In this document: piece after piece, positions 1,855 to 60,491 of the stretch
Layout of the letters: each line of letters opens with the position of its first letter
Numbering within the stretch: position 1 is the first letter of the stretch
NCBI RefSeq assembly: GCF_026210795.1
Contig: NC_089436.1
Coordinates: 1,488,001 to 1,552,000 of the forward strand
Length of the DNA: 64,000 nucleotides
Reading direction: 5' to 3'
Origin: Rhizophagus irregularis
Taxonomy: Eukaryota
Notes under the pieces: model-generated
What the model saw: only the letters and a program-made list of their open reading frames with translations
What the model was told of the DNA's origin: nothing
The model's database searches: none
Program-made: the position numbers and the translations under genes

Positions 1855-2150
1855 AAACTCATAAAAATCATGTAAAAAAAGAACAGTTTAACTATATACT
1901 AAATTATCACATGCATATTATAAATAATACAATTTTTAAAACACAATCGTGAATCATAAATGCAATAAAATGTTCAATAATAGGTATAATAGTAATATTT
2001 TATTAAAATAATATCTTTCTAAATTAATATAGTATATAATTATTTATTAGCATGATTCTAATGTATTTTAATTATTAAGAATGTTTTAACAAGTATTAAA
2101 ATAAAGATACAGTATATATTTATGTATGTATATATGTTTCAAATTTAGTT

Positions 2151-3652: not shown

Positions 3653-4105
3653 ACTTTTCTTTTTTTTTTAAAAAAAAAATTGAATTATTTTCTAATAAGA
3701 ATATGTTAGGCAAAAGAGTTAAAGAATAAAAAGAAGAGTATTATATATAAAAAAAATTTTTAGATGCATTAGTTTCACAACATGCAGTCAAATGATTCCA
3801 GTCTCCCATTTATTTATATACGCCATGATATATGATAATCAAAAGCAAATCATAATTTAATGATTTAAACCCCTTTTATTTTATTAATGATTTTCAGCGT
3901 TACATCATGATATTATAACATGTAAACGTGGAGTGACTGAGGAGTGCACAATGTGATCAATGAACTAATTTGTTTTGTAATACAATTTCGTAATTTTACA
4001 CAGGATTTTCAAATTTTTAAATTTATGACATCGATTTACTATTTGTTCTGTTAAACAATTAAACAATAAATAAATAAATAAAAATTTCTTGATTTAGTTT
4101 AAAAA

Positions 4106-11969: not shown

Positions 11970-13687
11970 GCAAGTTTGATTACAATGGTAAAGAAAAAAA
12001 AATAAAAGTCGCAATAGCAAACTACATTCCCATGCAATATATCTCATTTCCTCTGAAATTTTTTTTGCTACACGTACGATATTCTTTTTTTTTGGCAGAT
12101 TTCGTGTAATCATGATAGACATCATCATTATGTCTGAAAATTCTCTGAAATAATGTAATTAGAAAAGCCTCATTAAATCTGTGTAACAATAAGTAATAAT
12201 ACATACTTCTATCAATAGCATCATCTTGTAAATATCCGCTAACTTTACCCAGTCGTCCTCAAATTTCTGAGGCACCTCTAGCTCGAAAATTTTTTCGGCA
12301 AGACATTTATCTTTATCGGCCAAGCATACTCGCCAGGATTCACTTTGATTTTCTAGTTTATTGTTTGAAAGTCAGCACCAAATGTTTATTTTTGAAGGCA
12401 ATACAATTCTAAAAACTAAACTATGTACTATATATGTTAATACGATATATTTCCTAGATATTTCTGCATCCCCTTGTCTGTTAGTCCAGAATCTCTTACA
12501 AAGAGTATCAACCGCGTTACGAAATGATCTCTGAAATTTTTCAAGATACGACTTGTTAGAAAGTAATTTAGCTTTTTTAAAGAATCTAATCTCTTAACAT
12601 ACCTGTGATATTTTGGAGGTTTTGTTTTTCCTGGCGAGCACACATTCTCAAACACCAATCTTTCGATCTTGCTATTATTATCAAAAAGTATCCCATCGCA
12701 TTTTCGACCGGTCTTCTTATTAGATTTGTATACGTTTCGTCTTCATTTTGACGATGGGTATATCATTTCGCACCACGAACTTATGAATAGGCTAGGTTCT
12801 TTGTTTTTCAATACTTCAAAATCCGGAGCAATCCACGTAGCAATTTCACCGTATAAATACATGATTTATTATAAACAACGGGTAGAACCTCTCGTCAAAT
12901 TCATCGTCAGTTTTGTCATAGTCGTTTTCGTCTCCTACATCATCTTCTATTAAGCTAGACATAAGATGGATAGTTAATAAATAAATAATCGTATTGATTT
13001 ATACTACCACTGACCTTTCGACATTATCACAATTTGAATATTTTTCCAGTGGACTAGTTTCACGGCGTCTTCTCTTGCTTTCACGGGCAAGATCATCTAC
13101 CCATTTTTGTCCGATGATAGTGTCAAACTCCATAACTCTTTTTTCTGCATTTGCCCTATGCTGAGAGTTAAAAAATATATCATAAATAAACACGGAACCA
13201 CTCCAAAATTTCTCAAAGTTATGCAATATTTAAATATATTTATACCTCTGCAGAATGTTCAGTAAGCTTACTCCAGTATTGATGACAATCTTCAGATGTT
13301 TTGCATACTGCCTCATTTCCTTTTCTAATTTAATAGGCCTTCGACCACATCTTTAAGAGCTTGTTCTGCTTGGATTCGTTGGTCGTGCTTGAATTTAAGC
13401 TCTTCAAAAAATAACATTGCGACTTCCGGACTTTTCATTGATGGAAATCAAACCTTCTGTATTTAATTTTTTTCTTTTATAATTTCCACGAGTAGACGAT
13501 TGCGTAAAGTCTTCGGATCTGGGTTTCCCCTCTTTCTAAGAATTGGGTTTCGCCCCATTCTTTAGGATTAAAAACTAAAACACGAAAAAATAAGATCACG
13601 CGTAAATCTATAAACACGTGCAAATTACCCAATTCTGATCGTTTCCTCAGAAAAAAAAATTGATATGTCTGTATTACAGTCGGTACC

Positions 13688-16600
13688 GCAAATATATCGT
13701 TTTTGATTAAGGAGGTGATGCTTTTTGATTATAGAAGTTAGTTGTACAAACTGTTGTATCGTTTTTGATTATTGAAAAAATAAATGTATCATTTTTGATT
13801 ATTGAAAAAAAAATTCTATCGTTTTTGATTATTGAAAAAAAATGTATCATTTTTGATTATTCGATAGTATCACATGGTCACATGCATAGATTCGACATAC
13901 TGTACATATCGGAGACTTTATTCACTAAATAATTTCAAATTACTAAACTTATTAATCGTTATTTTTGTTTCCTTACTATTTACTGTTTCTTGTATATTTT
14001 TATTAAGCCATTTAAAACAAAGAATTGCCAACATTCATATGTCATAAATTTAATCCTTATTTTCTCAAAATTTGTCTTTATTACAACTAAAAGACAATAG
14101 TATTAATCAATCATCTATTTCATTGCTATGCATATAAACTCCAAATTCAATACTATCATTTAAAATTTCTTTCGCATCTTCAAGTGTTATACTATTATTA
14201 CGGTCCTCTTGAATCAGACGTAATGTTACTTCTGGTACTAGAACTTCGTAAATAAAATCCATAGGGTCTAATGGGTACGTTTTGTCTTTTGTGAGATTAT
14301 TAGAGTTAACAAACAATTCTATTAAAGTATTAACAATAGTATATAACCCATTAAACCCATAATAACCTGGCTGTAAATTAGTAAAGCTAATTAATAAAAT
14401 ATAAACAAAATTTATATTCAAACAGATAATTACCAACCTGAAAAACTTCAAATCGATTCATGAGCATCATTGGCGCCTTGGCTTTATTATATCCGACTTC
14501 TTTATATATTGAAGATGCAATATCCCAATAGTAACTTGAAATATTTCCGTTAATAATTTCAATGAGATCTTTTTCAAATTTGATTATGCGTGATGGAAGT
14601 ACATTAAAATCGATATATTCAGGATATCCTTTTGATAATCCATGTGGAACAATATTCAATTCACCATGATGCATTATACAAAAAGACCAACGTTCTTCTT
14701 CTGTGATTGGCTTGTTTTGTAGATTTTGTAACTGGTCTTTTATCTTTTCTGGTAAAATATCTGGTAGGATATTATCACAATAGGGGCATAAATTGTGAGA
14801 ATTAGGTACTAAATCAAATTCTAAATCCAAGTTTAAATCATCATTAGATGGCAGTTCTGGAAGATATTGAAATACATTGCGGGGTGGGCTTGGCATTATA
14901 AACGATGATGATGATGCAAATGAAGATGTACTTCTTCTATCTATTAAATAAATATAGGTAAAGAAATTAATAATACAGATATTAATGTTATTACGTTAAA
15001 TATATATCTTTACCAGTACTAATTGAAGATAAATTATCTTCTCGTTTTCGTTTAAGATTTCGAATTTGTTTTGTTTTCCTTTGTTGTATAGAAAACGTAT
15101 TACCAGATTGTGATTGGTTTGGTAAATTTATTCTATGGGACGATCGAGGTTTAGCAGATAATTTAGGAGGTGCGCCTAAATTTGATTTTGTTCTTTCACT
15201 TAATTCTGCTGGCCGAAATGGATCTTTAATCTCCTGAGATGACCGTTTAAGTGGATAAAATATTTTATTACCTAATGAGCAAAAGTAAGATTAATATAAT
15301 AAATAACAATAATAATTTTTAAAAAATTATTTCAAACATCTTACCTTGCATATTATATAATCTAATAATTTCTTGATAAGAATCTTCCATGTCACCTTGA
15401 TATATTACATTATTTTTTATAGACGCGGGAACTACTCGTTCCTTATTACGAAAATAGAGAACAAGATTTTTCTTTGCTTCGTTTACAACTTCTAGATGTC
15501 CTTTTTGTTGTGTTTCTATAAGCAAAGTGGCTGCATGACAGTGCCTACATTTATCACGTAATGAACTATTCCATATGTATTCCCAGCATGTACATTCACC
15601 AGTAATAACATTACATATATGAAATCCTTGTTCTAATATTACATTTTCGGATAATAAAGATTTCATAAGAAAATTGATCATATCATTTAATTTTCGTACA
15701 ATTTCCTCATCTAGACGCAAAGGCTTATCATCATAAGAAGATACGAATAAATCATCAGATTTTTTTTTAACAAGAAAAGTATTTTGGTCTGATGATATCT
15801 TAACCATATTAAGAAGAAAATCTAATCTTCCTTGATTTAATCTTCGAAGTTTATCACAACATATCATATCATCTTTAGTTTGCTATAAATAATTTAAAAT
15901 AAATTAATTTAATAATATTATTTAAAAATGATAACGAAAAAATTCTTACCTGTTCAATCGTTTGAGTATTGAATAAAGTAACTAAACCAGATTCAAACTT
16001 ATTTAAATCTTCATGACTTACAATAGTTTCACTTTGAAATTTTATTCCATACATTCGTTCAACAAATGTCAATGGTGTTTGTTTACCACTATATACTGCT
16101 TCAATTGTCCTATTGATCCGTTCTGTAAAATTGTTCGTAGTCCATGGAAATCTGTTTGTAATGTTTTTGGAAATACGACCAGCATCAATAAAACTTAATT
16201 TCCACTCCGTGCACATCCAATTTTTAGATAAATCATCTATTAATTTATCTTTTTTAGTTTTTTCCAATGGAAGAGTGTTAATAAATTCGATATATTTCTT
16301 AGCCATTTCAATGGCAGTTTCTTCAGTTCGACTACGACCTACAATTTTAAACGCTAATGCTATTGGATATCTAAACAATAAATAATTAATTAGTTATCAA
16401 TTTTAATAAAAAAAAATTAATATAATATATAACTTACCTGAATTTTGCAGGTATCTGCCATTTATTTAAATTTTCACTAAAAGTTTTCATAATATGAAAC
16501 CAACATAAAATTGGTTTATGTGAAGCATTTTGGATAGCAAGTTTAGATGGTCTATGCTTATCAATTAAGATATATGGCTTCCAATTATTGTTTTCGACAT

Positions 16601-18363
16601 TCACGAACTCGTTGAAATCCGTTTCCAGATAAAAGATTTTCATAGTACCACTTGTGTTCACAGAACTCGTTATCACATGGGATATTTTTTTTAATAGCGT
16701 CAATAGCCAATTTTATAGTATGATGATTTTCCTTATTAAATAGCGCTAATATATATATTTTATTTACAATTTAATAAATTACAATAAATTATATACTAAA
16801 TAATTTAATATATGTCAAATTTTACTTACCAAATGCAACAGGCAATCCGCAACCAGCACTATTCTCAGTAACAATTGATAATACCGGTGCACGGTCCAAA
16901 TTTAAATCATATTTACCATCTATTCCGATACAGATTTTACCGTAATCACGAGCATTTTTTAACCAAAACTCATCAGAAATTGTAAGTTGATAATATCGGT
17001 CAGGTGAATCAGCTGGTTGATTAATGTCTGCTATTTGATAATATAATATAAAACCTTGAGATTTTAATATATTATTTACTAAACTATCAAGCTGAGTCCG
17101 AGGACCAGTATCATCCTTTAATTTCTTATCATCTCTGGCAACAAATTGCCGGAGTTTGTCATTATTACATATTATACGTTGGCTTGCTAATGCATTGTTA
17201 ATTACTTCTTCTGATGCACCATTAAGTGATGTTAATAATTTCGCTTTTATCCCTTTGGCTGTCCTGTGGTCTGCTCTTCTGCTTAATGCTATCGAATCTC
17301 TGACAGAATAAGTTAAATTTATTCTTGAAATTTTAGGAATATTATTATTGTAAAATGTACGATGAGTTCCTTGAATGGTAATTCGCAATGGATTTTCTAA
17401 TGATAGCCAAGATAACCGACATTCAGAAATAACTCGACACTACAATGGTGCATATCATTTCCATTTTTCAAATTATTTCGTAAATTATAATTTTCACAAT
17501 TTTCATTACATTTTCCAACACTACCGCATAATCTTTGACAGTTGCCTCCATCACCTGAACAATACATAACCCAATACCAACATTGTTGGTTTTTGGCTAA
17601 TCCTAATTCAATTTGAGAAACCAGATCTCTTCCTAAACTGGTTAAAACTAAAACATCATCAATACGATTTGTTGATTTTACCGTTCCAGTTTTAGTTTTC
17701 CATGCTAAGTAATCTATTGCCCCTTGTACACGTTCTACCGTTAAGATTCCAGCTTTAACAAGTTTAGGAGTAACTTGTCTACTTTGATTTTTTAAGCGAT
17801 AATTTTTTAAAAGATTTGCATTTGATATATACCATTCTGCAGCACGACCAAATGGTACATTTACTGAGCCATCATCGTTGTATTTGATTTGATTTTCGTA
17901 AGTTTCCATATTATAATATATAGTAACGTTACACAAATTTATAGAAAGAAAATTATTACAAATAATTATCACGTAAAAAATATAAACAAGGTTATAAAAC
18001 GCAAAATATATTATAAAAACTATTATATAATAAAGAAAAAAATATCAAAAGAGAAATCAAAATTTTTGGAAAAGAAAAAGAATTGAACCATTTGTCGTGT
18101 GAAAAGTATTATGTGAACGCGTTAAATGTTATACAATGATACATTAACTTGTTAAGTATAAATTAAATAAATAAAACGTGATACTATCGAATAATCAAAA
18201 ATGATACATTTTTTTTCAATAATCAAAAATGATAGAATTTTTTTTTCAATAATCAAAAATGATACATTTATTTTTTCAATAATCAAAAACGATACAACAG
18301 TTTGTACAACTAACTTCTATAATCAAAAAGCATCACCTCCTTAATCAAAAACGATATATTTGC
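13688..18363 (-). mobile_element. Full-length Mutator-like (MULE) DNA transposon, 4676 bp
   Basis: Near-perfect ~186-bp TIRs (13688-13873 / 18178-18363) with internal tttttgatta repeats. Exact 9-bp TSD gtcggtacc at 13679-13687 and 18364-18372. Internal MULE transposase. Confidence 0.93.
14107..17909 (-). CDS. Multi-exon MULE transposase with SWIM finger, spliced to a C-terminal RTC4-like domain; one apparent frameshift near 17436
   Basis: DDE-type motifs IGIDGKYDL, ILIDKH, LCWFHIM, TTNNFTERIN. SWIM CTCWEY...CRHCH. Downstream exons join in frame to CPYCD...FCIMHHGELNIVPHGLSKGYPEYIDF...QPGYYG. Confidence 0.8.
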
Positions 18364-18989
18364 GTCGGTACCGATATTCTATGTACCGATATAAATTGCC
18401 TGTACCGATAAATTTTTGTTGTCCCATTTCACAATTAATAAAAAAACCTCGTTGTACCGATATTATATATAATTTCGCGATGTATAGTAAGGTATACCGA
18501 TATTTTAGGTTACACTGATTTAATTCAGGTCGGCACTATAAACTTGGCCTGAATTAACAAGAGGATTTCCATCATTCCATCCAAGTAATTAGATTTTTTA
18601 GATCTTGTTTCAACACAAAATGTGAACAACTTTTGTTTCATGAAATGTATGTTAATGAGAAGCTATAATTTAATCTTTAAATAAACTCGAGAGTTTGCAT
18701 AATGCCTTCAAGAATTAGACTTTGGCCTACATTATGATTCACTATGTAATGATAATTTGATGTAACGATATATTTTACCCAAACCAACAGCATCGGTATA
18801 TTGAGGTCTGACTGTATACATGTTATTTTTGATGCAAGGTTCATTGATAATCGAACACAAAATTTATATTGAGAATGTATATACATATAAAACAAGTACA
18901 CATGTTTAAAAATTGGAAGTAAAATCTTTATTATATTTTTTTGTAATGTAATATATGAGAAAGGGCTGGCTGGAGGAATGTAACAATAG

Positions 18990-20705: not shown

Positions 20706-21855
20706 AATCTTTTGTAAAACATTACCAATTACTAATACTGAAATTTAGTTTCAATTTTAGTATGACTCAAACTGAAACTAGTAAACTATGCTAATCAAAC
20801 CCTTAAATCTACTTAAATATACAGTCAGACTTCTATGTACTGATATTTTATGTACCGATAATTACCTGTATCGATAAATTTTCTATGTTCCATTTCATAA
20901 TTAATAAAAAAATCTTGTTGTACTGATACTAGCCATTAACCTGTTGCTTTGCAATGGTATACATACATATAAAAAAAGCGTGACCTGTATGTAACAATTA
21001 ATTCTGGCCAGAATTATGTAATCAGTGCAGAAATTTCCTTTTATGAAGTATTTGTGAAACCAAAATTCCCTATTTTTGTGGGAAGCAAAATTTCCTTTTT
21101 TGGAAGTTAGTATAACGTCACGTGATAAAGTGCCCAATAGGAGCGATGTTACACAATTCAAATTTATTTATACAGGGTAGTCTAAACATTACGGTTACAC
21201 ACAAAAACAATTATTATATAGTATAGATTATATATAATTTTACAATGTAACATATACCAATACTTTTCTATGCTTTTTTTTAATTAATACATAGTGAATG
21301 ATATATATGGGATTCATTTATACTACTGTATTATATATATTGTATCACTTATATTACTTATTATATAATAAAATATAATAAAATATATATAAAAGTTAAG
21401 GTTGCTTGCCGAAACCTGTTTGGCCTAATGCCGAAAGGTGAAACCTCTTATATAGTGCCAAAACATGCCGAAACCTCTATAATAGGTTTCTCCGTAGTTT
21501 TGGCATAGTTGATCATAAGATTTGCATATAATTACGCCAAGTTACACCAATTAATAATATAATTTAGATGATCAAATAATCTACAGATAAAAGATTAAAC
21601 TTCAATATTTTACCGTCGTCTTAGGGCTTCTTTTAAGCTTTATCTAGTGTTAGAATTTTCATTTCTAACTCCCATATTAATATTATGATATTACACGTTT
21701 TTACAGTTTTTTTTTAAGGGGCTTATATTCATTAAAAAAAAATGCGTAACATGCATTTAATAAACCCAATTCCGTCATCTCCTTAACACTGAACTAAAGT
21801 TTCTTTTACTTTCTTCCGTTTTCTTAATAATAATATTAATAATAAACTGTTTCAA

Positions 21856-23028
21856 ATGACTGATCACATAGAAGATTCACCCATTAAAATGAAAAATAGA
21901 GGAGGTCGGCCACCTAATAGCATTTGGGAAGATATTAATAAAGGAGAAGCTGTTGGTTCTGGCAAATTTGCCGCCTCCTGCAAGTACTGTAAGAATACAT
22001 GGTCACGCGGTGAAGTTTCAAAGCTCAAAGAGCATCTTTCAAACCATTGTCCAGATGCGCCAGCAGCAGTTGTTAGAAGGTATATGACTAAAGTAATGGA
22101 ACGGCAAGATAAGTCCAAGTCATCCAAAAAAAGAAAATACTCTGAAGGTCAAAGTAACATGGATGATTACCATGATTCAACAGAGCTTAACGAACAAAGA
22201 TGTACACGAATTAATCGTGCATTAGTTAAATTTTTTATTGCGTGCGGAATTGCGTTTAGAGTAGTGGAACATCTCTTTTTCATCAATTTTATAAAAGAGC
22301 TTAATGCCGGGTACAATACACCAACAACGGAAGTATTAGTAAATCAACTACTTGAACGTGAATTAGCTCAAGTGAACTTCAAAGTTAATTCTGAGCTTGA
22401 AAAGGAAACGAATTTAACGTTAGGTTTGTTAAATTAAATAGGCTATCATACGTCATTTTTATTTAATTGTCCGGAGCGAAGCGAAGGACTATATATGTTT
22501 ACGCACTATGATGATCTATGGAAATAACGTGTAAATTTTCAATCACGTGAGTTTCTCTGTCCAGGAATTCCAAGGCGTTATGCTGCTAATCAGCAGAAAA
22601 TTACCAGAATTCCAAGGCGTTATGCTGCTAATTAATAGAATATCGCTACATCTTTATTATTATACCTCGCTCCAGACTTACAACGGTTCCCATTTCCTAG
22701 TCTTACTTACTATATAATATTAATTTATAATTTAGCCTTTGATGGTTGGACGTCTGGTACACATCGTTCAATTTGGAACTTCATTGTAATGACTCCGTCG
22801 CGTAAAGAATATCTTTATCAACTTTCTGATTTGTCTGAAAATTCGCACACTGCAGAATATCTAGTTACGGTAATTGAAAAGGTTATAGAAGGTATTGGAG
22901 AAGATCGAATATGTGCTGTAGTTTCCGATAATGCGGCCAATGTTCGTAATGCACGAAAAATTATACATGAGAATCATCCAAAGATTGAGAATGTGCGATG
23001 CGTTGCACATTCTATCAATTTAATTGCA
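21856..23028 (+). pseudogene. hAT transposase with BED zinc finger, 3'-truncated
   Basis: BED finger IWEDI...CKYC...LKEHLSNHC. ACGIAFRVVE; spliced LTLAFDGWTS (first catalytic D); VVSDNAAN (second D); CVAHSINLIA (CxxH). The sequence then switches abruptly to a palindrome. Confidence 0.88.
22469..22700 (+). mobile_element. Small non-autonomous Helitron/Helentron-like insert inside the hAT intron
   Basis: Subterminal inverted repeat gtccggagcgaag (22469) / cctcgctccagac (~22665). Internal 26-bp direct repeat gaattccaaggcgttatgctgctaat. Ends in ctag|t. Confidence 0.45.
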
Positions 23029-23030
23029 TG

Positions 23031-23080
23031 AGCCATTTATGACTAAATAATATAATTATATTATTTAGTCATAAACGGCT
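23031..23080. repeat. 50-bp spacerless palindrome
   Basis: agccatttatgactaaataatataa|ttatattatttagtcataaacggct is self-complementary with one mismatched pair; centre at 23055/23056. Confidence 0.95.
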
Positions 23081-24385: not shown

Positions 24386-24830
24386 GTCACCAAGAAAATT
24401 TGTTAGTGACTCTCTTAGTGACGCTCTTAGTGACACCCTTGTATGCCTTTTTCGGTGTTTGGGGACGCTCGGTTCTCTTCTTTTATATTTGTCACTAAGT
24501 CACTAAGAGTCACTAAGAAAAAGTAAAGTTCTAGGAAAAAAAATCGAATTTTTTCTATGCTACTCCTATGGCTTATATGCGATATAGTATGATACATATA
24601 TGACATATGCGTGATACATATATGCTAAAAAAAAAATGAAAAAAAGTTATGGAACTCGGATTTTTCTTAGTGACTCTTAGTGTCATAGTGACACCTATCT
24701 AGAAACCTTCTGATGGCTCTAAAAATGTGAAATAGCTATAAATTTTGTCACCGAGAGCGTTACCAAGAGTGTCACCAAGAAATTCTACAATTTATTGTAG
24801 GTTCGTCCAAAAGGCCATAGGGATAGTGAC
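24386..24830. repeat. Non-coding cluster of TTAGTGAC/GTCACYAA motifs in alternating orientation (candidate origin or binding-site array)
   Basis: About 14 copies, e.g. 24386, 24403, 24415, 24427, 24491, 24499, 24509, 24667, 24686, 24746, 24771, 24824. Also a duplicated aaaagtaaagttmtaggaaaaaaa block and an AT-rich centre. Confidence 0.75.
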
Positions 24831-25170: not shown

Positions 25171-25367
25171 TTATATATATCAATTAATAATCTTGGGGAA
25201 TTATTTTCATTTTGAACTTTTTTCTTGCGAATAATATACCCTGAGTTTTGGTATAGCTATAAATTATCTTAATTTGCTTGAGAAAAAAAAATGACCCAAT
25301 CCGACTTCTTCGAAGACGCCCCCGCCCTTTTTCACCCAGAGGCTGAAAAAGAAAAAACATCATCAAA

Positions 25368-28300
25368 ATGGAGTGGTCGGGTAATCAGATATGGGGTGAA
25401 AGTTACTTGGCGGGTATCTCAGCCCGTGATAAATTAGCTATGAGAAATGACGAGAGTTCGACTTTAACTCTCAAAGTTGAGATAGCGAATCATCGAGATA
25501 TTCCATTCGTGTCATACGACATAGAAGAAGCTAAAGAGTATATTAATAAAATCCCCCATTATGTTCTTCGAATCTATGGACATCTCATTAATGGTCAGAA
25601 GGCAGTCGTAACTATCACTGGTATTAAGGTTTTCTTCGATATTCGCGTTCCCGAAAATTCGAGTATTCCTAAATTCTGGTCCAAAATTAAGGGTATACTT
25701 ACTACTGGAAAAGACAACCAGGGGAATAGAGTAGACATGAATCTGATCCGAAGGGAGTGCATAAAGGCATACCCTATTCGTGGCTACCATGCGGAAAAAA
25801 AGTCATATCTTCGCATCATTGCACCTAATAAAGATATAAGGTTCACTGCTCTCGATATCATTTCAAACTATAATTCGGAGGCTGATCCCGAATGTAAAAT
25901 AGAGACAGCTTCTGATGATACAGGTACATATTATCGTAAAGTTGCGAGAGAGTATAGGATACCACTTTCCGGATGGGGGTTAATAAGAGACTACAAATAT
26001 AATTTCGGAGCACCATATTATGCTCGTTCCCACCTTTGTCCACATGCGTTTTATGTCCATATCAAAAACTTCCGCCCCATAGACGATTTCGGACTACTTT
26101 ACGGAATCTATCTATCTTTTCTATTTACTCGTGACCGAGCATTAGTTCTAACATGGGACATAGAAACATACGATTCACGTGGATTAGGCAACTTCCCAGA
26201 AGCGAAAAATGACACGTCCCAGGTTTTTACGATCTGTATGACCCTACACTGGAAGGACGACTCAAAGCCACTAGAACAGATATGCCTTGTTGATGTTGAG
26301 ACGGCACCAAATCCGCGCTGGACAACCATCATATGTGGGAACTAAGTCAATTTATTAAAAGCTTTCGCTTTATGCTGGAAATCTTTTGCTCCAGACATCC
26401 AGCTCGGTTTTAATGACTCTGGTTATGATTGGCCATTTATAGTGGAGAAGGCCACTAAGTTAGAAGTCCTCGGATGGATGATTCAGCAAATCTCTGCGAA
26501 CCCACATAAGAAAGCTAATGCTCAATCTATTCTCACTTGGAATTATTTCAGTGGAACTGGAAAGCCACTAACTAATGGTTTCTTCCAAAAGAGCCAGTGG
26601 GTAAAGAAAACGGACAGGAGTCCCAAAAAAATATTAGGCCGAGATTCCATTAATATCAAAATCCATCCAACTTTAGACTTCGAATCCTCCTTTCTTAAAC
26701 TTCCCGGGTGTGTGCCGATTGATGTTCGTGCAAGTTTTATGCAACTCCACCCTCACTCTGAAAAAACATCACTTAAATTCTTCTTAGAAAAATGTGGTCT
26801 CGATGGCAAAGCTGATATGCCCATGAGCAAATTATGGGAGTATTATTCGGAAGCAAGGAATGGGACTTCCGACTCTTCCGTCAAAAATATGCATGAAATC
26901 GTAAATTATTGTGTTATAGATGCTTTACGTTGTCAGGAGCTCATGGTTAAAAATAATGTCATAAATGATTATAGAGAAGTTGCCTCGATCGCCCACATAT
27001 CATTATTTGACACACATTATTATGCCATAGGAATGAAAGTAGGTAATCTCTTGGGCGCTGAAGCGTGGGCGGAGGACATTCTATTCAGCATGAAAACTTC
27101 TGATCAGAAAGCATCTGGGAAGTTTCCGGGAGCATATGTATTCCCACCTGAGAAAGGTCTTGAAAATAAGCGACCGGTCACGGGTTTGGACTTCGCTTCC
27201 TTGTACCCTAGCATAATTATGACTTATAACCTCTCATCCGAGAAGATGGTCTCAACACTTTTGGAGGCCGATGAGTTAGGGAGAGAGAATAAAGTGCTCC
27301 ACAATATCAAGTTCAAGTATAATGGTAATCCTATACGAGCCTGGACTATACGGCATGGGAATAAGCCTGATCAGAAAGGTCTTTTCCCAAAGATATTGGA
27401 GAGATTGGGGAGAATGCGAAATGAAATAAAAGCCCAGCTAAAGCCCATTGGAAAGAAAAAGGAATATATGGGAAAGGTCAAAAGTAGAATGGATGCCAGC
27501 GGATCTATCTCAATAGCGGACGCATTCAAAGATGTTTTGTCCTCGACGAAGAATATGAAGAAGCGTGCTGAGATGGTTAAAATCTTAGATCCTTTTATTG
27601 ATTTATCGTATGATAATTTTATAAAAGAATACAGTTCTGTCTGCTTTGCCTATGAATCTTTAAATTCTAAGCAGAAAGCCATTAAATTGTATATGAATTC
27701 ATTCTATGGTGTGACGGGTAGAAGTGGCTCCCCATTCTACATACTCGAACTTGCTGGAGGTGTTACTTCGGCTGGGCAAGAAATTATCAAACGTGTCACA
27801 GAGTACGTTAGAAAGAAAGGCTTTGGGATAAAATACGGTGATACCGATTCCTTATATCTCACTTGTCCAGATTCCTATTTTGAGAAATACGATCTGGCTT
27901 ATAATGATGGGAAGGGAGAAATCTCTAAACTAGAGTATTGGACCGAGATGGTCAAGACTACTATGGGTGTAATAGAAAAATTGCGCAATGATGTGAACAC
28001 TTTCCTCAGGCTCAAGACTAGATCGGATTATCTTAAAATGGCCTACGAGGAAGTACTATTTCCAGTAGCGTTTACCAGAAAGAAAAAATATTTTGGCATT
28101 GACCATGAAGAGACCCCCAACTTCGAACCAAGAGAGCCTTTTATAAGGGGAATAGATACTGTGAAGCAGGGTAAATCCCAAGTTTTCAAAACTATAGGGG
28201 ATCGTATTATGCGAAGGGCTATGGATATTAATAACGTCCAATCACTCCATGAGATTGTTGAAGACATTCTCAGGGATGCTATAATTAATCATGAGCAGTG

Positions 28301-29285
28301 GAATTTTGAACAATTTATAGAGACTGACGCTTGGAAACCCGATAAAGATAACAAAGCTGTTCAGCGTTTTATAGGAAGAATGAGAGGAAAGTATGATAGT
28401 AAAATTCCGATACCAGGTGAGCGCTTTAGTTATGTAGTAACCCATCCCGATACTACCTTCGATTTACATGGTAGAAAGTTAAAACCAACTAAAGGCGAAA
28501 AAATGGAATTCGCCGATGTAGCTAAGGAATTGGGGAAGGAATTAGATTTATACCATTATTTCGAAAAAACTATTATTGGCCTCTGTGCCCGATTTATCAT
28601 GTATGATAAGAAGTATGAGCCAGAACCCTCAAGTCGAATCATGCGAATCGAAGACCCGGATGAGAAATATAAGCAAATTGATGACTATGCTCAAAACAAG
28701 GCCAAGTCATGGCTTGAGGGATTCGTAAAAGAAAATATCATAGTCAATGGTGTTACTTCCAAGATGATGGAATCTCGTGGGATTGCTTATAAGCGTGCTT
28801 ACAGAACTGCGGTCAAAAAGGCACAAGAAATGTTGTATCAAAAGATAGGGTACTTATACGAAATATTTCATGGCGAATGGCTTAGCTACGAGATTTTCAT
28901 GATAAGTAACCCTATCGAGGTATTATGGGAGAAATTTATGAAATGCGCTAGGAAAATTTCAAAAGATAAAAACCTCTCGGTAGATGACGAAATGAAGGAA
29001 AAAATATGCTCTGATTTTGCTCGATATCCTAGCGAGCTTGCAAAGTGTATTGAAGAGTATAATTTATTCTTTCACAAATTGGTCTATCATATGCGTTACA
29101 AAGAGCATGTGTCAATTCCAGAAGAAATCAGACCAGTTGCATCCATGCGAAAAAATGAGATAATTGCTGACCTACCTTCCTTACCTCACATATCAGAAAT
29201 TGGGGTACTAGATGAGATTAGTAATTTATGGTATTTCCATCTTGAGGATGTGACCGAGCCGGAGGCAGTAAAGCAAAGCACTTAA
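25368..29285 (+). pseudogene. polB: Family B DNA polymerase with 3'-5' exonuclease, large-DNA-virus (asfarvirus-like) type; one internal stop
   Basis: ExoI LTWDIETY, Exo[13 protein letters not shown], ExoIII YCVIDA, motif A DFASLYPS, motif [15 protein letters not shown], motif C YGDTDS, KKKY. The two ORFs are in one frame, separated only by TAA at 26343-26345 (32 open codons then join 26442). About 1305 codons, no introns. Confidence 0.93.
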
Positions 29286-29396: not shown

Positions 29397-31061
29397 TCAA
29401 TCTTCGATCTTCCGGCCTCCGATCATACATCCCGACCTCGGATATGCCCAGAGAGGATAAAAATAGTTCCGGTTAGGAGAATAGTCAGTATTACTTTTTT
29501 TCGATGAATTCCAGTATTTCCTGACCACAAACCATATAACCGCAATCAGTAGAAAAGCAAGTATGGAATATAATACCATCGGCGACATTAGAGAGTTAAT
29601 AACGACAGGAACAGTCACTGATGCTAGAGGCATTTCTTGGGACAATGGTACTACTTCTGCGCCACCTGAATGCTTCGCAATCCCTTTTCTCGAAATGAAA
29701 TTTTCGGAATGTGCTGGTAGACTATGAACGGATTGATTAGATAGGGTAACTGCCTGGTTTCGAGAAACCATCTCATCCCGGGGTAATAGCTCTTGCAAAG
29801 CCTCTAATATATTTTCTCTGGCAAAACTTTTATCGAGTTCCATAACTTTATTTTCAAGACCATGATTATAGACGAGGGGTCTTAGATCATCACTGACCCA
29901 ACCTGGAATCTTTTGCGATGAATCATTCATAGGCGGAGGTGGAGTATTAGAGAGATCTGCTTAAGGTTGCTTGTCTAAACCTCTTCAAAATCCTACGATT
30001 AGTTTCGTCAAAATTTTACTATAGATTTATTATAGTTTCGGCAGAGTTTCAGCAGTTTCGGCATTTATAATAAGTTTCGGCAGTTTCGCCTTTCTCCAAA
30101 GTTTCACCAGTTTTTTAATATAACTTTAATATAGTTTCGGCAGAATTTCGCTTTTCGGCGAAACGCCATCTTGCCTAAACCTCTAGGTTTCGGCAAGCAA
30201 CCTTAGATCTGCTATTTCATTATCTTTCTTTGAGATTATCTCTTGGAGACGAGAATTTTCCTCCATCATTTTTAATCGTTCTGAAGACCGAATATCTAGC
30301 TCCCGTTTGTATATGTTATTCGACGCCTCTATCCCCTTTTCCATACATTCTATTTCATATTTTTTTGAATTTCGATCTTCCTTTACTTGTTCTAATTCAA
30401 GTCTGAGAGAATCGATCTCTTTGGGGTCAGGGTCAGATGGGTTGGTCCCAAAGGGACCGTTTATTTGGGCCAGATTCTCTATCATCCCTCCTATTACATC
30501 CAAACCATGATATGTACGCTCTAGATCTATGTCCTCCAACTTACCTTCCAATTCACGTATTTTAACTTCAAGAGAGAGAATCTTGATCTTGTCAGCGGAC
30601 GAAGCTTTCTGGGTCAAAGTTGCCTCTCTTTTTAGTGTTTTAATAGAAGATTTGAGCGATTGGATTTCAGCAGTATATTTGGCTTCAAGCTCACGTTGGC
30701 TCTCAGAATGAGACTTTCGTTCAGAAATAAGTTGGGATCTAACTTTAACGCTAGACGCATTTAACTGGCCAATCTTATTCCCAATATCACTATAGCTTCG
30801 CTGATACTCCTTTTCTCGCTCATTGTACTTATCTACCAGTTTTTCACTGAGATCATTAATCTCAGAGTTAAATTCAGTAACGGATCTTAATTTTTTTTCG
30901 AGCTCTTGCTCATATGCACTACCCAGCCGATGACCAGGTTTTTTATAAGAACCACCTTCTCTATCTTTTATATCATTCAATGTATGCACTTTGGACATAA
31001 TATTAGCATGGTTATATATTAGAAAAAAAATGCACGAATAAATTTCTGAGATAATAGACAT
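29397..31061 (-). pseudogene. Coiled-coil protein with a C-terminal transmembrane helix, interrupted by a hAT MITE
   Basis: Removing 29962-30205 plus one TSD joins ...DNEIADL to SNTPPPPMNDSSQK in frame. TM segment MVLYSILAFLLIAVIWFVV followed by RK. Confidence 0.8.
29962..30205. mobile_element. hAT MITE, 244 bp, same TIR family as the hAT at 21397
   Basis: TIRs taaggttgcttgtctaaacct / aggtttcggcaagcaacctta. Exact 8-bp TSD gatctgct at 29954-29961 and 30206-30213. Confidence 0.95.
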
Positions 31062-31251
31062 AATCTGTTTATTCAGAATAATACATTCTTTCTAAATATC
31101 CTATTTATCCCGTATATCTTATACGTCCAGAATATTATCTTCCTATATATCCTGTATATCCCATATTTTCGGAATAATACATACTTTCTATATATCCTAT
31201 TTAATAAATTATTTTGGAGTATTATATTAGATATAAAAAAATATTGCTACC

Positions 31252-31794
31252 ATGCTCAGACAACGCATGAGATGTGAGTCCCCTCCTTTTTCACCAGCCG
31301 ATTATGATCATATTATGCAATGTGCTGAAAAAAAGCCTAGAGATAAAGTTTTAAAGGATTTAACAAATAAATATCGCACATCACAAAAACGTATTTATCA
31401 GATCTGGAGAGGTGAAGAAAAAAATAGGGTTGCGTGGAATCAACCAATTCATATGTCAACAGCTGGTCCTGGAGGGACTGCTTCGCTTTCTAATATAAAT
31501 GTTGTGGACGGGCAGATCGAGCCAAAGATCCAAGGCCAAGACGTTTCTCCATTTACAGAACTGGAAAAACAAATACGTGATGCTAAGATAGAGCCTAGCA
31601 AATCTATTGATTCAGTTTTGGAAGAAGGTGGGAAGGCAAAAAAGGCCGGAGGGAAGAAATTGAAGTCCAAGGATGGGATACCACCGCTAATACCATCTCC
31701 TATCCAGTCTCAACCAATTCCCACGTCGCATGAGAAGATAGTTGAAAGAAACGTAAAAAATATAGCAAATATGAAGAATATATTAGAAAAATAA
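31252..31794 (+). CDS. Hypothetical protein, possible N-terminal HTH
   Basis: Intronless 180-aa ORF; LKDLTNKYRTSQKRIYQIWRG has a helix-turn-helix-like pattern. Confidence 0.5.
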   Translation: MLRQRMRCESPPFSPADYDHIMQCAEKKPRDKVLKDLTNKYRTSQKRIYQIWRGEEKNRVAWNQPIHMSTAGPGGTASLSNINVVDGQIEPKIQGQDVSPFTELEKQIRDAKIEPSKSIDSVLEEGGKAKKAGGKKLKSKDGIPPLIPSPIQSQPIPTSHEKIVERNVKNIANMKNILEK

Positions 31795-31927
31795 CTCGCC
31801 TATTCTCTGCCTTAAGCGCCTTCGGCAAGAAGTTCATCATAGCGCGCCTGTAATCTTTCACAATACTCATTGATTTCTGCATTATATTTAAGAGTGCTAT
31901 ATAGCATTTTTTCAAGTTCCTTATAAC

Positions 31928-32809
31928 TCACTTTTTTTTTAATACATCATCATCCTCACTTAAATCCTGCAAAATACAGTCCGGAGTCGAGGATTCATCA
32001 CATTTGGAAGTAGTGGTCGCACAATTCACCTCGAGCTTATTCTTGACCTTATGCATATTAATTGGGATAAAAAATTCCTTACCATTACACTCTAGTCTCA
32101 ATTCCCGCTTTGATGCAAGTAAATCATAATTATATTTATCAAGAAGCGTGTTGGGTAAGATTAGCATCGGCTTAGGGTATTTGACTACAGCAAAATCAGC
32201 ATATATAGTACATCCGGGAGCGAAATTTACTGGGACATTTCTGACAATTCCAAGGGATTCTGTGGGAGTAGTAGCAATGCCTCTGAGATCATGTTTTTCT
32301 TTTGTATCAATTTCTAGCTTTGATCGTTTAGAGATATCATCTGTCATAATCAGAAAATTAGCACCAGGATCAACTATGGCACCCGGAATGACTAGATGCT
32401 TGATTTTGCACTTAGTAGTAACAACATCTGTGGCGGGATCTTTTTTCTGAACGAAATCGATTTCCATAGGCTCATTTAGAATTTCGTCTTCCCCACCTGA
32501 GTCTGGAGTTTCAGGAGTATCCGAAGTGGAGTCATCTTTACCATCAATCAGTATTCTGGAAGCAGAATTCTGCGATTGAAAAAAGGCTATGATGTCGCCA
32601 AACTTTTCATTAAGCACCTTCTCAATAATTTTCTCAATAATATTTTCCAAGCGGGATTGATTATCCTGTGACAGGGATTCTGAACTTCGCTTTTTCTTTT
32701 TAGAGAAAAAAGCTGTCTCTATATCTGTTACCTCTTGAGACTTAGCCGTAAGGCGACTCTTTGATTTCTTTTTTAGTGAAGAGGAAGGATTACTCGATTC
32801 TTTCTTCAC
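31928..32809 (-). CDS. Retropepsin-like aspartic protease, in the -1 frame relative to Gag
   Basis: AIVDPGANFLIMT (D-x-G active-site motif with P at x), LRGIAT flap-like segment, DFAVV...MLIL pattern. Overlaps the Gag stop at AAAAAAAAAGTGA. Confidence 0.8.
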   Translation of the reverse strand: MKKESSNPSSSLKKKSKSRLTAKSQEVTDIETAFFSKKKKRSSESLSQDNQSRLENIIEKIIEKVLNEKFGDIIAFFQSQNSASRILIDGKDDSTSDTPETPDSGGEDEILNEPMEIDFVQKKDPATDVVTTKCKIKHLVIPGAIVDPGANFLIMTDDISKRSKLEIDTKEKHDLRGIATTPTESLGIVRNVPVNFAPGCTIYADFAVVKYPKPMLILPNTLLDKYNYDLLASKRELRLECNGKEFFIPINMHKVKNKLEVNCATTTSKCDESSTPDCILQDLSEDDDVLKKK

Positions 32810-34991
32810 TTTTTTTTTGCCTTAGTAATATTAATATTAATATCAGCTTCGGACTCAGATTCGGATGAAGAACTCGAACCAGAATCAGAAGAGTCATCAG
32901 ACAACATATCAGAGTTAGTGTCCGAACCCGAATCTGAATCTAAAGTGGCAAGATTTACTTTACCTTTTTTAGACTTACTCTTCTTTTTTCTGGGACACTT
33001 ACGAGAATTGTGACCAGTTTTACCACAATTAGAGCATTTATGCTTGGCTAACTTTTTGACCACATTAACCATTTGAGAGTATTTTTTGGAAAGCTTGGTG
33101 TAATTGGTATTATTAACACCCAATCTCCTTATTAATTCGTCATTAATATAATTATCTAAGGATGTAAGATCTTTTGGTGCATCAACTGGCATTCCCAACC
33201 GCACTGCGCGTATATACATCTTTTCTAAGGCATCATTATTTTGGGGTTGTGCCTGAATCGGTTGAACTAACTGTGCTTCAAGGGAGGCTATTTTGGAATT
33301 TAACTTATCAATCTCAGCTGAAGAATTACTCTGATAATTTTGACCCCATTTAAATTGGGAGCACGCTCCAGCCACATGTCTTTTAGATTTGTAAAAAATG
33401 CATTAATACCGGCAGGAGTGACAGCTCGCATCCATGTATAAAGATCACCCGACAAGTGATTCTTAAGAAATCCTACAGTTTGGGCATCACCATCTGCTAC
33501 ACCTAATAATAAAGGTCGGATTCTTTTCTTTTATCAAGTATCTGGTGAGTCTGTGGGTAGAAATTTTTCTTGAGTTAATCTTTGAAGTGCCGACTGCCGA
33601 CTACCTACTGTTTCTCGTTGATAATGTGATCTCATCCAAGCGCGTAAAGTAGCTGGAGTATTAATATTAGCATTTCCGTTATATGGGTCTTGGGCAGGAA
33701 CTGGTAAATATTTTCCTCCCATCTGAGCTTTATAAATATCACACTTGACAGCATCATCAAAATCTCCGGCATTTGCATTTTCAAGAACAGTCATATGTCC
33801 TTGCGCGAATGATATTGATTGAATAAGCCTATCCAAATAATCGTCAGGAGGTTCTTGGCCTGTATACGGCTTATTTTTAGCAAGAATAGGTGCAATCAAA
33901 TTTAATACTGGTAAACGTCTAGCGTCAGCCATATTTCCTAATGGATTATTCTGAAGCGCCAAAATTTGTCCCTGCAAATTTAAAATATTCTGGTCTCTTT
34001 GCCTAATCACTAGTTGGAAAACAAACTTTTCACGTAGCAATTTACCAATGCGGGTTTGTTTTCTTGCTATAATAACTAACATCCTATTTACCTGGTTTTG
34101 GGCATTGGTCTGCAACTGTCGGGTATTTTGCTGAAGACGGTTAGTATTTCGCTGATACAATAGCTGTTTAGCAAATTTTTCTCGTAATAGTTCCTGAATA
34201 CGTCTATCTTTATCCTGATATGAAAACATCCAGCGACAGGATTCTTGCCTCTCATTATTATAGGCCAACATAGCCAAGTCCCGCTCTCCTTGAGCATTGT
34301 CCCTTTCTCTCACAGTTCTTTCAACTCGAACTCGGGATTCATCTAATAAACGTTGAAATCGTAAATTCTAGTTTCTAATATCTCTTAACTGATTCCCAAG
34401 ATCCCGTTCCCGGTTATTTGTATCATTTAATATGTTCTGATACTGATCACGCTCGGCTGTAATATTTTGCAAAGTAACCCGAATAGTATTTAATGAGCCT
34501 CTGATACCATCTATAACATTAGCAGGATTCTGCATAGGAGTACCAACTCCCCTAATGTGATTTTCAATTCGATCTAACCCTCTATTAACATTTGCGATAA
34601 GATTGGTCGTTGCCATATCTAAAGCATTTATTGAGATTTTTTTATCTATGAGAATCCAGATTCTTGCTTTAAGACTCCCAACCTTATTTTCAAGCTCTAT
34701 GATTCGTCCATCTTGAATAGACCTAACCTCATCTTTGAATTTCTTATCCTGTTGTAAAACCCTAAGCTGTTTTCGCAAATCGGATATTTCTGATTTAAGT
34801 TTCTCTATCTCTTTCTCATGTGCTATGATAGTATTATCCTGTATTGAGATAGTTCGATAACATTGCTCAAGCTCTTTTACCAGAGATCGAATTTTTTTCT
34901 CATTGCTCTTATTAATGAAAATCTCATCTTGAAGCTCACCACGAAGCTCTTGATTCGTATCTAAAAGCTGTGAATATGTCAGATCAAACAT
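32806..34991 (-). pseudogene. gag: Gag-like protein: N-terminal coiled coil, capsid-like domain, CCHC zinc knuckle
   Basis: ORFs 34991-34368 and 34313-33534 are one frame split by TAG. Capsid-like YTGQEPPDDYLDRL and LQRLTQEKFLPTDSPDT..KRIRPLL. Further stops at 33531-33536 and a frameshift near 33345, then CSNCGKTGHNSRKC. Confidence 0.78.
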
Positions 34992-35037
34992 GGTATTATT
35001 CAGCCCTGATTTATAGTACTATCATAATAATCCTACT

Positions 35038-36714
35038 TTGAGAATGAGTCAACCGCAAATTGTGATAGATCCCGATGAAGAGCTCCGTATAGTCTGTAGA
35101 CTTCTATTTTATAATATACCCGGTTTTCATCCCAATGCAAAAAAATTACATAAAGCATGTCAGGAGGAAGGATATTCTTTTCGATTACAGGATATCGCAA
35201 AATGGGTAAAATACCAATATAGCTACCAAATCTATCAACAGCCATTGCCATGCAAAGCTGAGGCGAGTTTCTCAAAAATCAAAATTCCAAATAAGGTGCA
35301 CCAGTGTGATATTTTGCTCCATACTCATGATGACCAGGATGGAAGAAGGGTATTCGTTTGTAGTTTTCTAGTCATAGATGTGGCAACACGTTTTAAGGCT
35401 GGACGTTCATTAACATCAAGAAATAGTTTGAAAATCTGGAATGCGGTCGAAGAAATATATGAGGACCCCTCTAATCCTCTTACATGGCCAGGATTATTGA
35501 TGACTGATGGTGATGCTTCGTTCCGAGGTGCATTTTTACGAGGGATGGAACAGCATAATGTTCCAATACGTGTTGTCGACCTTTATAGTTTCGAGAGCCT
35601 GGCTTTGATCAAAGCATTCAAGAAAAATCTAGCAAAATTAATATATAAGGTCCAATATGCTATAGAGGGGCGATTGGCCGAAGGAGAACGATCAAGACTA
35701 TGGAATAAAATTCTTGAGAAATACATTGATTTTATGAACAATAGCAAGACTCGCCTTATCGGAATGTCACCAGCTCATGCTATGACTTTGGAAGAGGTCG
35801 AATCGAAACCTTCTAGTAAAGCTAAACGGGCAATTAGGAGACACGAAGAGATAAAGTTAAAAAAGGGTACAGCGGTTAGATATCTATTGAAACCGGGTGA
35901 GCTGGAAGGTGATCACAGGCATCGAGCAACTGATCCGTACTGGTCATTACGTGTATACAAGATCAAAAGAGTTGTTGTCGGAAGGAATCCACCACAACCA
36001 GTCTTATATTATCTCGAGAATGAGCCCATTGAATCCACTGCTCACTTGATAGGACGGAACCCCAAGTGACCCTTCAAATATGAGGAACTTCAAGTGATTG
36101 AAGAATCTGATAAAATCGAGTATCCACCAGATGAATTTATGCAAAAATACCACCTTACTGGATTCATCCATTATGTTAATGCTTCCAGTAGTAAGTCAGT
36201 TCAGGCCGTGGATTATGCCATGAAGCGTGATGGGCAATGCCTTAGAAAGACCGGGCAAATAAATGGTCATGATGTGTATCTTTGGTCTTGCAAGAATGGT
36301 GCACACCAGTGGGAGTATCCACTAAAATATATTATGAAAAAATTCGAATGGTGTCCTCTTTGCCATCATAGAAGCGGTGAACGCCAATGCCGATATATTT
36401 TTGAGGATCTACTAGGCAAGAAATTTCCATCATGTAGGCCGAATTTTTTGCATGGAATGCAACTTGATGGATATAACGAAGAGTTGCAACTAGGATTCGA
36501 ATTTCATGGCAAGCAACACTATAGTCTTAATTCAATGTTTCATAGAAGAGGCCAGATAGATTTGGATGAACAGAGAATACGCGATCAGAAGAAGCAGGAT
36601 ACTTGCAAGGAGCAAGGTATATGTCTTATCGAAGTGCCTTATACTGCGGATCTTTTTCCATACATTAAGCATACACTAATCGAGAAAGGATTCTTGAGTA
36701 ATTCTTCAAGTTAG
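35038..36714 (+). pseudogene. Polinton/Maverick-type DDE (rve) integrase fused to a Zn-ribbon and PD-(D/E)XK-like nuclease; one internal stop
   Basis: [68 protein letters not shown] at 36067-36069 is the only break before ORF 36094. C-terminal [15 protein letters not shown] and [21 protein letters not shown]. Confidence 0.85.
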
Positions 36715-36782
36715 GTCGGAGAGAATTATCTTCTTGGTAATTTGCAAGATTATTTTTAGAATAATATTAGTAATAGTTCGAC

Positions 36783-37544
36783 ATGAAAATAAAGAAACTT
36801 GAGCCAGTTGAAAGGTTTGTATACCATATCGATGAGATTAAAGATGCCAAAAAATATAATGGACACTCAAGTGTTCCCCAATGGCCTTTCACCCTTGGAA
36901 TCTTTGGCCGTACTAATACGGGAAAAACTAATGAGGTTATTAATCTCACGCTCAGAACTAAGCCTTATCGAATGTCTAAAGGAAAGAAAGGAGGGACACG
37001 TTATATCAAGTGTGATGATTTGCTACTCATCGGTCACAATCTTAATGAGAAAAAATATATGATCCTTAAAACAGTGTATCAGACAATTGCTAATAATCCA
37101 AAGCCATATCGTGAAAATATTTCATTCCGAGCTTTGAAGCCTGATAAAATTCCCAAGATAGATTCATTTTCTCCGGACAGGGCTACGTTAGCTATATTCG
37201 AAGATCTATGCGCTGATCCAAAGGAAGTGCAGAAGAAAATTATTCCTTATTTCATTGAAGGGCGCCATTACAATGTCAGTTCGATATATGTATCCCAGAG
37301 TTACTTTGATTGCCCGAAGATAATACGAAAAAATCTCTCACACATCTGCCTATTTAACGGCTCCTGCACTACGGACGAGCTTAGCAGAATCGTGTGTCAA
37401 TATGCTAATGACTGGCGCAGTGTAATTAAGATTATTGATAAGGCATTATGTGAGAAAGAATTCATTGTTTTCGATCTAACTGTACCTCGAGAGCATCCAC
37501 ATAGGATACGTATTGGCTGGGATGTACCTCTCACTAATGAGTAG
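36783..37544 (+). CDS. A32-like (FtsK/HerA superfamily) genome-packaging ATPase
   Basis: Walker A GRTNTGKT, Walker [24 protein letters not shown] (arginine finger plus conserved Q), PKIIRKN. 253 aa, intact. Confidence 0.88.
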
Positions 37545-60482: not shown

Positions 60483-60491
60483 TGCTCCGGA

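Follow-up and report, generated by a model that had tools for sequence, protein, structure and literature searches.

Two Conserved A9 Runs at the Frame Junctions of a Gag-Protease Gene in a DNA Element of Rhizophagus irregularis

The Gag-Protease Gene and Its Junctions

The stretch of Rhizophagus irregularis DNA analyzed here (the window) comprises 64,000 nucleotides (NCBI RefSeq assembly GCF_026210795.1, contig NC_089436.1, positions 1,488,001 to 1,552,000 of the forward strand), and all positions below are counted from its first letter. Its minus strand carries a gag-like gene in three frames, those of Gag, a protease, and a short tail, which would be linked by two runs of nine A (A9), each stepping one base back. 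The gene belongs to a DNA element of Glomeromycota that also carries a family B DNA polymerase (PolB), an integrase-like gene, and an A32 ATPase, and not to a retrovirus. The parts of the gene, with the junctions as read in the sequence, are the following.

32809..34991, minus strand: gag-like gene, with an N-terminal coiled coil, a capsid domain (from 33932), a CCHC knuckle (33036-32995), and a basic and Ser/acidic tail
32806..32818, minus strand: junction 1, made of A9 (32818-32810), G, and TGA, the stop of the Gag frame, with the overlapping heptamers A_AAA_AAA and A_AAA_AAG
31931..32821, minus strand: protease frame, with a basic linker of ~120 residues, a retropepsin/DDI1-like domain (D-P-G at 32371-32363), an acidic spacer, and KKK*
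31928..31940, minus strand: junction 2, made of A9 (31940-31932), G, and TGA, the stop of the protease frame
31812..31931, minus strand: tail of 39 residues, heptad-like in pattern, read in the -1 frame past junction 2

A preliminary description of this DNA placed A9-GTGA at 32818-32806 and 31940-31928, and both copies are there on the minus strand. It also held that each closes a frame as KKK* while the -1 frame stays open, into the protease at the first and into a short tail at the second; both are seen, and the tail has the sequence quoted. The -1 frame at junction 1 is open from 32821, through the protease, to 31931, and the one at junction 2 from 31946 to a stop at 31814, giving the 39-residue tail. 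The codon phase is the same at both junctions, the run beginning at a third codon base (NNA AAA AAA AAG TGA), and XXXYYYZ heptamers, A_AAA_AAA and A_AAA_AAG, lie in register at both sites. At junction 1 a mere 13 nt, from the upstream stop of the -1 frame to the Gag stop, is common to both frames, and at junction 2 the overlap is 16 nt; hence a frame switch has almost no place but the run. The 13-mer A9-GTGA occurs twice in the window against 0.03 expected, and two copies are found in 0/100 shuffles; as this pattern was picked after the fact, the real test of the excess is conservation.

Contigs of run X1, which may be the source of the window itself, match the window over 31500-32069 and 32609-33159 without a difference or a gap. 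Those of run X3, from a different study, span 31500-32069 with 0 differences and 0 gaps, and 32186-33347 with six substitutions and 0 gaps; the library type of these two studies is not recorded. Neither A run is touched by any of the 11 indels listed for four public runs. Because the X1 and X3 contigs cross both runs without gaps, the A9 at both junctions is not a homopolymer error, and the A10 that the preliminary description had proposed to look for is not what the contigs of other public runs read, which is A9.

Conservation Across Homologous Loci

The best 80 of the 147 homologous loci found were scored. The 52 loci used for junction 1 are what remains after setting aside 8 without the anchor, 15 of insufficient length, 3 lacking a run, and 2 mis-picks; the 68 used for junction 2 remain after setting aside 7 without the anchor and 5 without an automatic call. 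The -1 geometry is present at junction 1 in 39/52 loci (37 with A9 and 2 with A10), with 11 in the +1 and 2 in the same frame, and at junction 2 in 49/68 (42 with A9, 5 with A8, and 2 with A10), with 14 in frame and 5 in +1. L020 and the L072 lineage are further -1 cases at junction 2, with a more distant stop. The run is thus kept at 8-10 A, mostly at exactly nine (37/39 and 42/49 at junctions 1 and 2), and never falls below eight at a -1 junction. The bases that follow it are not kept: where A9-GTGA had been proposed as the unit of the junction, the A run stands and GTGA does not, other copies reading GTAA, CACATGA, CGCATGA, or TGCAATG.

Conservation of the junctions had been named as a check, and they are kept across many divergent copies. 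The -1 geometry persists down to ~53% protease identity; when loci are clustered at 90% protease identity it has the majority in 28/35 clusters at junction 1 and 27/39 at junction 2, and at 80% identity in 10/12 and 11/17, respectively. The first A of the junction 1 run falls in an NNA codon in 39/39 cases, spread over seven amino acids and 21 contexts, the background of third-base A being 1058/3621. In 49/52 loci (window included), this run and the protease core are separated by a multiple of three, even with 29 different lengths between 228 and 390 nt, and the linker is devoid of methionine in 10/23 lineages; the protease frame is hence kept open from the run on. Among loci, the median overlap of the frames is 22 nt for junction 1 and 16 nt for junction 2, and TTTAAAA, in six cases, is the only other heptamer within these overlaps.

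The same picture emerges from proteins. Among 95 classifiable ones, 39 end in KKK, 16 are of the KKN/KKT type, 8 show the +1 form, 17 continue into the tail, and 15 are of other kinds; KKK C-termini are found in annotated Gag proteins of Gigaspora, Diversispora, Glomus, and Rhizophagus. In 22 dereplicated tails, the sequence is stop-free over 30 codons in 16 cases for the -1 frame, 4 for the 0 frame, and 0 for the +1 frame, and the ratio of synonymous to nonsynonymous changes is 105/140 in the -1 frame versus 42/219 and 74/210 in the others. Coding constraint in the -1 frame is thus seen for the tail, as it is for the linker. Within the same lysine-rich genes, KKK triplets elsewhere are written AAA AAA AAG in 0/89 cases, runs of nine or more occur elsewhere once in 25,248 nt (not dereplicated), and no such run occurs elsewhere in 11,917 nt of coding sequence of the window's element, which indicates that A9 runs are avoided outside the junctions.

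Given these data, the idea that the junctions reflect assembly errors or the neutral decay of one continuous open reading frame (ORF) is very improbable and largely refuted. This copy does have at least five other breaks, and run lengths vary from 7 to 11 among copies, but contigs from two studies both read A9, the join at junction 1 is open and in frame in 1/52 loci (L002), and the same state recurs across lineages with 53-100% protease identity.

Six far more distant relatives of Gag and protease (P0144, P0146, P0147, P0254, P0283, and P0289) end at or just past lysine runs. As seen in proteins only, the P0144-type relatives hint that the lysine-run signal is older than the sampled family.

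Recoding at the A Runs

We regard it as highly probable that both A runs are sites of programmed recoding, whichever machine slips, and propose from sequence conservation that recoding would set the ratios of the products. Slippage would yield Gag, less Gag-protease, and least Gag-protease-tail. An element recoded in this way would obtain an abundant capsid protein, a small fixed share of it with the protease, and a smaller share with a coiled-coil tag, itself probably a copy from the membrane-anchor-like gene of the element. If RNA polymerase slips, a minority of transcripts would carry one extra A, with A10 in place of A9. The slip would occur on the run itself, with no stimulating RNA structure, and this is likely because no conserved structure follows either run. 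The lack of any -1 junction with fewer than eight A, together with L077, where A9 is kept in another phase, fits a rule of run length, as expected from polymerase slippage or from ribosome sliding.

Several observations weigh against programmed slippage. Canonical -1 frameshifting needs a 3' structure, and a search for one (70 nt, no pseudoknots) gave a mean z of -0.4 over 22 lineages at junction 1 and of 0.06 over 21 at junction 2, with z < -2 in 3/22 and 1/21 lineages, at differing places; no conserved structure was found on either side of the run, and the junctions have no match in Rfam. Among RNA contigs, those of X17, presumably an RNA run, are the only bridging set and read A9, and contigs cannot reveal a minority of A10. 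In-frame fusions at junction 2 (14/68 loci and 17/95 classifiable proteins) imply that the shift is dispensable or has been lost in some lineages. The Gag frame of the window's copy is interrupted ahead of junction 1, and the activity of the protease is uncertain because its active site reads D-P-G. Finally, the junction callers are heuristics of our own making, applied to loci that are related and in many cases decayed.

A short hairpin at junction 2 of the window, and a stem starting within junction 1 (z -2.1), were considered and discarded, as they are not conserved. The RNA-run contigs X18-X20 cover only 31750-32057 and could derive from the convergent gene described below.

The same frames would result if the ribosome slipped, through a tandem -1 shift or by sliding along A_AAA_AAA_AAG, while held up at the adjacent stop. 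We give this a serious but less than even chance, which is a share of the probability attributed above to recoding and not an addition to it. In its favor, the XXXYYYZ register is kept, with phase 2 in 37/39 and 47/50 cases, the Gag stop lies within one to two codons in 39/39, and gag-pro junctions are the classic ribosomal sites; some variants at junction 2 read A_AAA_AAC, listed among the most shift-prone eukaryotic heptamers (PMC5009743), and ribosomes are described as sliding on A runs (PMC4363877). Yet the heptamer needs only 6-7 A, and a run of seven is found in 0/88 of the -1 junctions (39 + 49); the missing hairpin and Rfam match, the different phase of L077, and L075, where the stop lies nine codons past the run, also speak against it. 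Because the entire run is kept, and not one heptamer, RNA polymerase slippage is slightly favored over the ribosomal -1 slip.

Termination followed by reinitiation is improbable. The RTGA overlap would allow it, protease and tail then being separate proteins, and at junction 2 the -1 codon over the stop is indeed GTG in 28 and ATG in 17 of 50 cases (window included); however, the overlapping codon at junction 1 is GTG in 28, GTA in 11, and ATG in 0 of 39 cases. Furthermore, the -1 tail is open, and the run lacks a start codon, in L072, L073, L075, and L076, in-frame fusions of protease and tail exist, and the A9 would be left unexplained.

Splicing, by which database gene models join the frames (the P0310 model implies a 59-nt intron at 32879-32821), is an unlikely solution as well. 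The host is a eukaryote, the GTGAGT that follows junction 2 at 27/49 sites matches the donor consensus, and an intron with an upstream acceptor is possible in 15/35 loci. But no such intron is possible in the other 20/35, the position of the AG is shared in only 11/35, 22/49 junction 2 sites have no GT after the run, and RNA contigs, at low cover, contain no joints. The models also place the frame joins differently from copy to copy, and because they bridge junction 1 in different ways the family is probably misannotated.

Gag and Protease

The labels Gag and protease, given earlier from the sequence, are borne out by fold. The Gag frame of the window is broken three times upstream of junction 1, by a stop at 34370, by stops at 33536-33531, and by a frame change near 33345; the continuous homologs P0154 and P0133 align across these breaks, and the frame change is common to run X1, while other copies differ. 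The CCHC knuckle matches zf-CCHC at E 0.0027, under the cut-off. For the capsid region of a homolog, L027, a fold of two helical lobes is predicted with a mean predicted local distance difference test (pLDDT) of 87. All of the 32 Foldseek matches listed for it are retroviral, Arc, or PNMA capsids, none of them reaching E 0.001, and a re-alignment, which is a second look at the Foldseek matches, gave Z 10.8 with the C-terminal domain of PEG10 (root-mean-square deviation [rmsd] 2.5, 84 aligned residues), Z 9.2 with Copia (rmsd 8.8, 157 residues), Z 9.0 with Ty3 (rmsd 5.3, 142 residues), and Z ~9 with Ty1, values of ~9-11 being middling for helical proteins. Its top match in the Atlas is Retrotrans_gag (0.95). 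A search of PDB sequences with the capsid domain returned nothing, and BFVD gave weak capsid matches only (best E 0.019). These lines, individually modest but agreeing, make a Gag-like capsid fold likely.

Three loci (L016:1138-2628, L020:2-1360, and L035:3-1015) have visibly different types of capsid sequence before the same junction 1 and protease, L035 matching Retrotrans_gag at E 0.0034. From sequence, this suggests an exchange of Gag modules between loci.

The protease frame matches the profile of DDI1-type proteases (E 3e-4), and Foldseek gives E 3.6e-5 on a model with a pLDDT of 58. An R. irregularis database protein is identical to it. D-P-G replaces D-S/T-G in the lineage of the window, with 64/115 near homologs having it; DSG or DTG is found in 48/111 distant ones.

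The Surrounding Element and the Tail

The gag-protease gene is surrounded by the following features.

31237..31794, plus strand: convergent ORF, conserved in the element (25/80 loci), with no Pfam match
30183-31091, minus strand: coiled-coil ORF, next to the gag-protease gene
29397-29960, minus strand: ORF with a hydrophobic, membrane-anchor-like stretch, as read from the sequence alone
25347..29285, plus strand: PolB of the RNA-primed type (PF00136, E 8.7e-44), split by a stop at 26343-26345
35017..36714, plus strand: rve-like integrase, then an in-frame nuclease-like domain (DUF4379, E 0.0036), split by a stop at 36067-36069
36777..37544, plus strand: A32-type packaging ATPase (PF04665, 29.5 bits, cut-off 22.8), at the same position in L072

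The copy in the window is decayed, with stops in PolB, the integrase-nuclease gene, and Gag, besides the frame change in Gag. Other loci have intact versions: PolB is one ORF of 1217 aa in L075, the integrase-nuclease gene is one of 602 aa in L072 (Pfam rve, E 0.028, under the cut-off), and L075 has a single coiled-coil ORF of 405 aa that ends in a matching hydrophobic stretch. The best solved relative of PolB is PDB 8ywg (E 3.5e-180), which we take to be the polymerase of African swine fever virus (ASFV), and the next unrelated match is at 1.7e-19; a search of PDB sequences with the integrase-like ORF gave nothing. Gene order and strands are the same in L072, L073, L075, and L076, with 43-65% identity for PolB, integrase-like, nuclease, and A32 proteins; these are four overlapping loci, apparently of one lineage, and most other loci are too short to include these genes. 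Named homologs come from Rhizophagus, Gigaspora, Diversispora, Glomus, Cetraspora, Paraglomus, Entrophospora, and Ambispora, and a scan of viral contigs found no relative.

Among the ORFs scanned, none has a Pfam match to reverse transcriptase or RNase H, the ends of the element being undefined. In the window, L072, and L075 alike, other ORFs take up the DNA between PolB and A32, leaving no room for a reverse transcriptase. No long direct repeats closely flank the gene, the only pair that spans it (18973/45774, 89%) being 27 kb apart, and no terminal inverted repeats bracket the element within the window, although its far end may lie outside this DNA. A long terminal repeat (LTR) retrotransposon was rejected, with no reverse transcriptase among the ORFs scanned and no flanking LTRs. 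Near 22-24 kb the G+C content climbs from about 27% to 35-40%.

In most loci the tail is 30-53 aa long. A profile built from 48 tails matches a segment of the 30183-31091 ORF (E 1e-4) and its counterpart in eight loci at E < 0.001, and in L074 and L049 the tail and a segment of the downstream coiled-coil gene carry the same variant residues. Because of these matches and common residues, the tail is likely a duplicate of a segment of the coiled-coil gene. It may serve as a docking or dimerizing tag, and the in-frame fusions of some lineages suggest that it acts as an extension of the protease. A complex prediction for tail and coiled-coil protein scored 0.02, which has no weight either way. In L077 (1062-1172), the -1 frame past junction 2 encodes an unrelated zinc-finger-like peptide (C-x2-C-x12-H), the contig ending inside it.

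On the plus strand, junction 2 (31932-31940) is a T9, ~140 nt past the stop of the convergent ORF, and could double as a terminator; T-run terminators are known in asfarviruses. Just upstream of PolB, at 24400-24780, a cluster of short direct and inverted repeats is a candidate end or origin. A motif of 40-60 nt recurs at 38464, 38829, 49034, 49661, and 57068, beside several unknown ORFs in the region of higher G+C; it is possibly a shared promoter, and the element may reach well past 38 kb.

Relation to Known Systems

The preliminary description drew a parallel with retroviral gag-pro-pol, of which the two serial -1 steps hold and the retroviral context does not, the gene lying in a DNA-polymerase element without reverse transcriptase. 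As in the beta- and deltaretroviruses mouse mammary tumor virus (MMTV) and human T-lymphotropic virus (HTLV), Gag is followed by a protease in -1 and by a third frame again in -1, with an A-rich heptamer and nested products (PMC5009743). However, the third frame here is a coiled-coil-like tail of 30-50 residues and not Pol, there is no reverse transcriptase, no stimulator is conserved, and both sites have the same A9. Lacking Pol and a conserved stimulator, the layout is a functional parallel to the MMTV/HTLV group and not a member of it. Another parallel is dnaX of Thermus thermophilus, where a homopolymer of nine bases is likewise the kept signal and no structure is needed (PMC5009743), whereas the present case is eukaryotic and nuclear, with two sites in series at which slippage is proposed. 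With Ty3/Ty1 Gag and DDI1-type retropepsins the gene shares the two-lobed capsid fold, the CCHC knuckle, and the aspartic protease fold, but it has no reverse transcriptase/RNase H, a long N-terminal coiled coil is present, and the integrase-like gene stands apart from it on the other strand.

The replication genes point elsewhere. Gong et al. described ASFV-related "Fundsbetavirus" polymerases in R. irregularis, and the available text lists no gag, protease, or integrase beside them (PMC7017919). Zhao et al. found 15-33 polB copies per R. irregularis genome, with no major capsid protein or A32, and their available text never mentions gag, integrase, or frameshift (PMC10640383). These dispersed asfarvirus-like polB genes have a PolB apparently of the type found here, in the same host group, and with stops in the polymerase; in contrast, recoding is absent from the available text of both papers (PMC7017919; PMC10640383), and the likeness of our PolB to theirs comes from its match to a solved structure. 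Polintons/Mavericks and MELD also combine PolB, an rve integrase, of which the integrase-like gene here is a putative counterpart, and an A32-type ATPase (PMC8502044). However, the present PolB resembles RNA-primed and not protein-primed enzymes (it matches PF00136 and structures of RNA-primed family B polymerases), neither a jelly-roll capsid nor adenain was identified, and terminal repeats were not found; for the double jelly-roll capsid, the ORFs of the window have no Pfam match (unknown ORFs were not folded). Membership of Polintons/Mavericks was rejected on the type of polymerase. The legend of Fig. 5 in the adintovirus paper mentions Matrix/Capsid/NC/Pro genes in an element with an adintovirus-like PolB (PMC8502044); hence the pairing of Gag and PolB seems to have been glimpsed already, in an element that is not identifiable from that legend.

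A literature search, with subscription papers, figures, and the supplementary tables of PMC10640383 outside its scope, gave no account of these junctions or of this gene set, and the available part of the supplement of PMC8502044 has no mention relevant to it. The element with PolB, integrase-like gene, A32, and Gag-Pro is thus apparently undescribed. Tentatively, and with less than even confidence, we suggest that the many orphan asfarvirus-like polymerases of mycorrhizal fungi represent a class of integrating DNA viruses or self-synthesizing transposons that has so far gone undescribed. Such an element would have a polymerase of the type of nucleocytoplasmic large DNA viruses, a Gag shell of retrotransposon type, an A32 motor, and a membrane-anchored coiled-coil protein, with the amounts of shell, protease, and tag set by two serial RNA-polymerase slips on A9. 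Such a gene set offers an answer to the puzzle of 15-33 asfarvirus-like polB copies per genome with no detectable major capsid protein, as put in the available text of PMC10640383, and a Gag-type shell beside PolB and A32 would unite structural and replication modules of two virus realms. A few retrovirus genera are known for serial -1 recoding around a protease, which would here occur in a DNA-polymerase element without recognizable reverse transcriptase, and a bare A9 without structure is a clean test case for productive slippage by eukaryotic RNA polymerase.

Other Features of the Window

A 4.7-kb element at 13687-18364, with inverted repeats of 187 nt (99%) and several ORFs without Pfam match, is likely a DNA transposon. 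Adjoining the PolB element, 21793-23031 codes for a BED zinc finger and DUF659, a fragment of a hAT-like transposase. Host-like genes lie at 1060-5778 and 59472-60491 (a NIPA transporter, two TLDc proteins, and an F-box/leucine-rich repeat ORF), and a tandem array of 82-nt units occupies 51032-51523.

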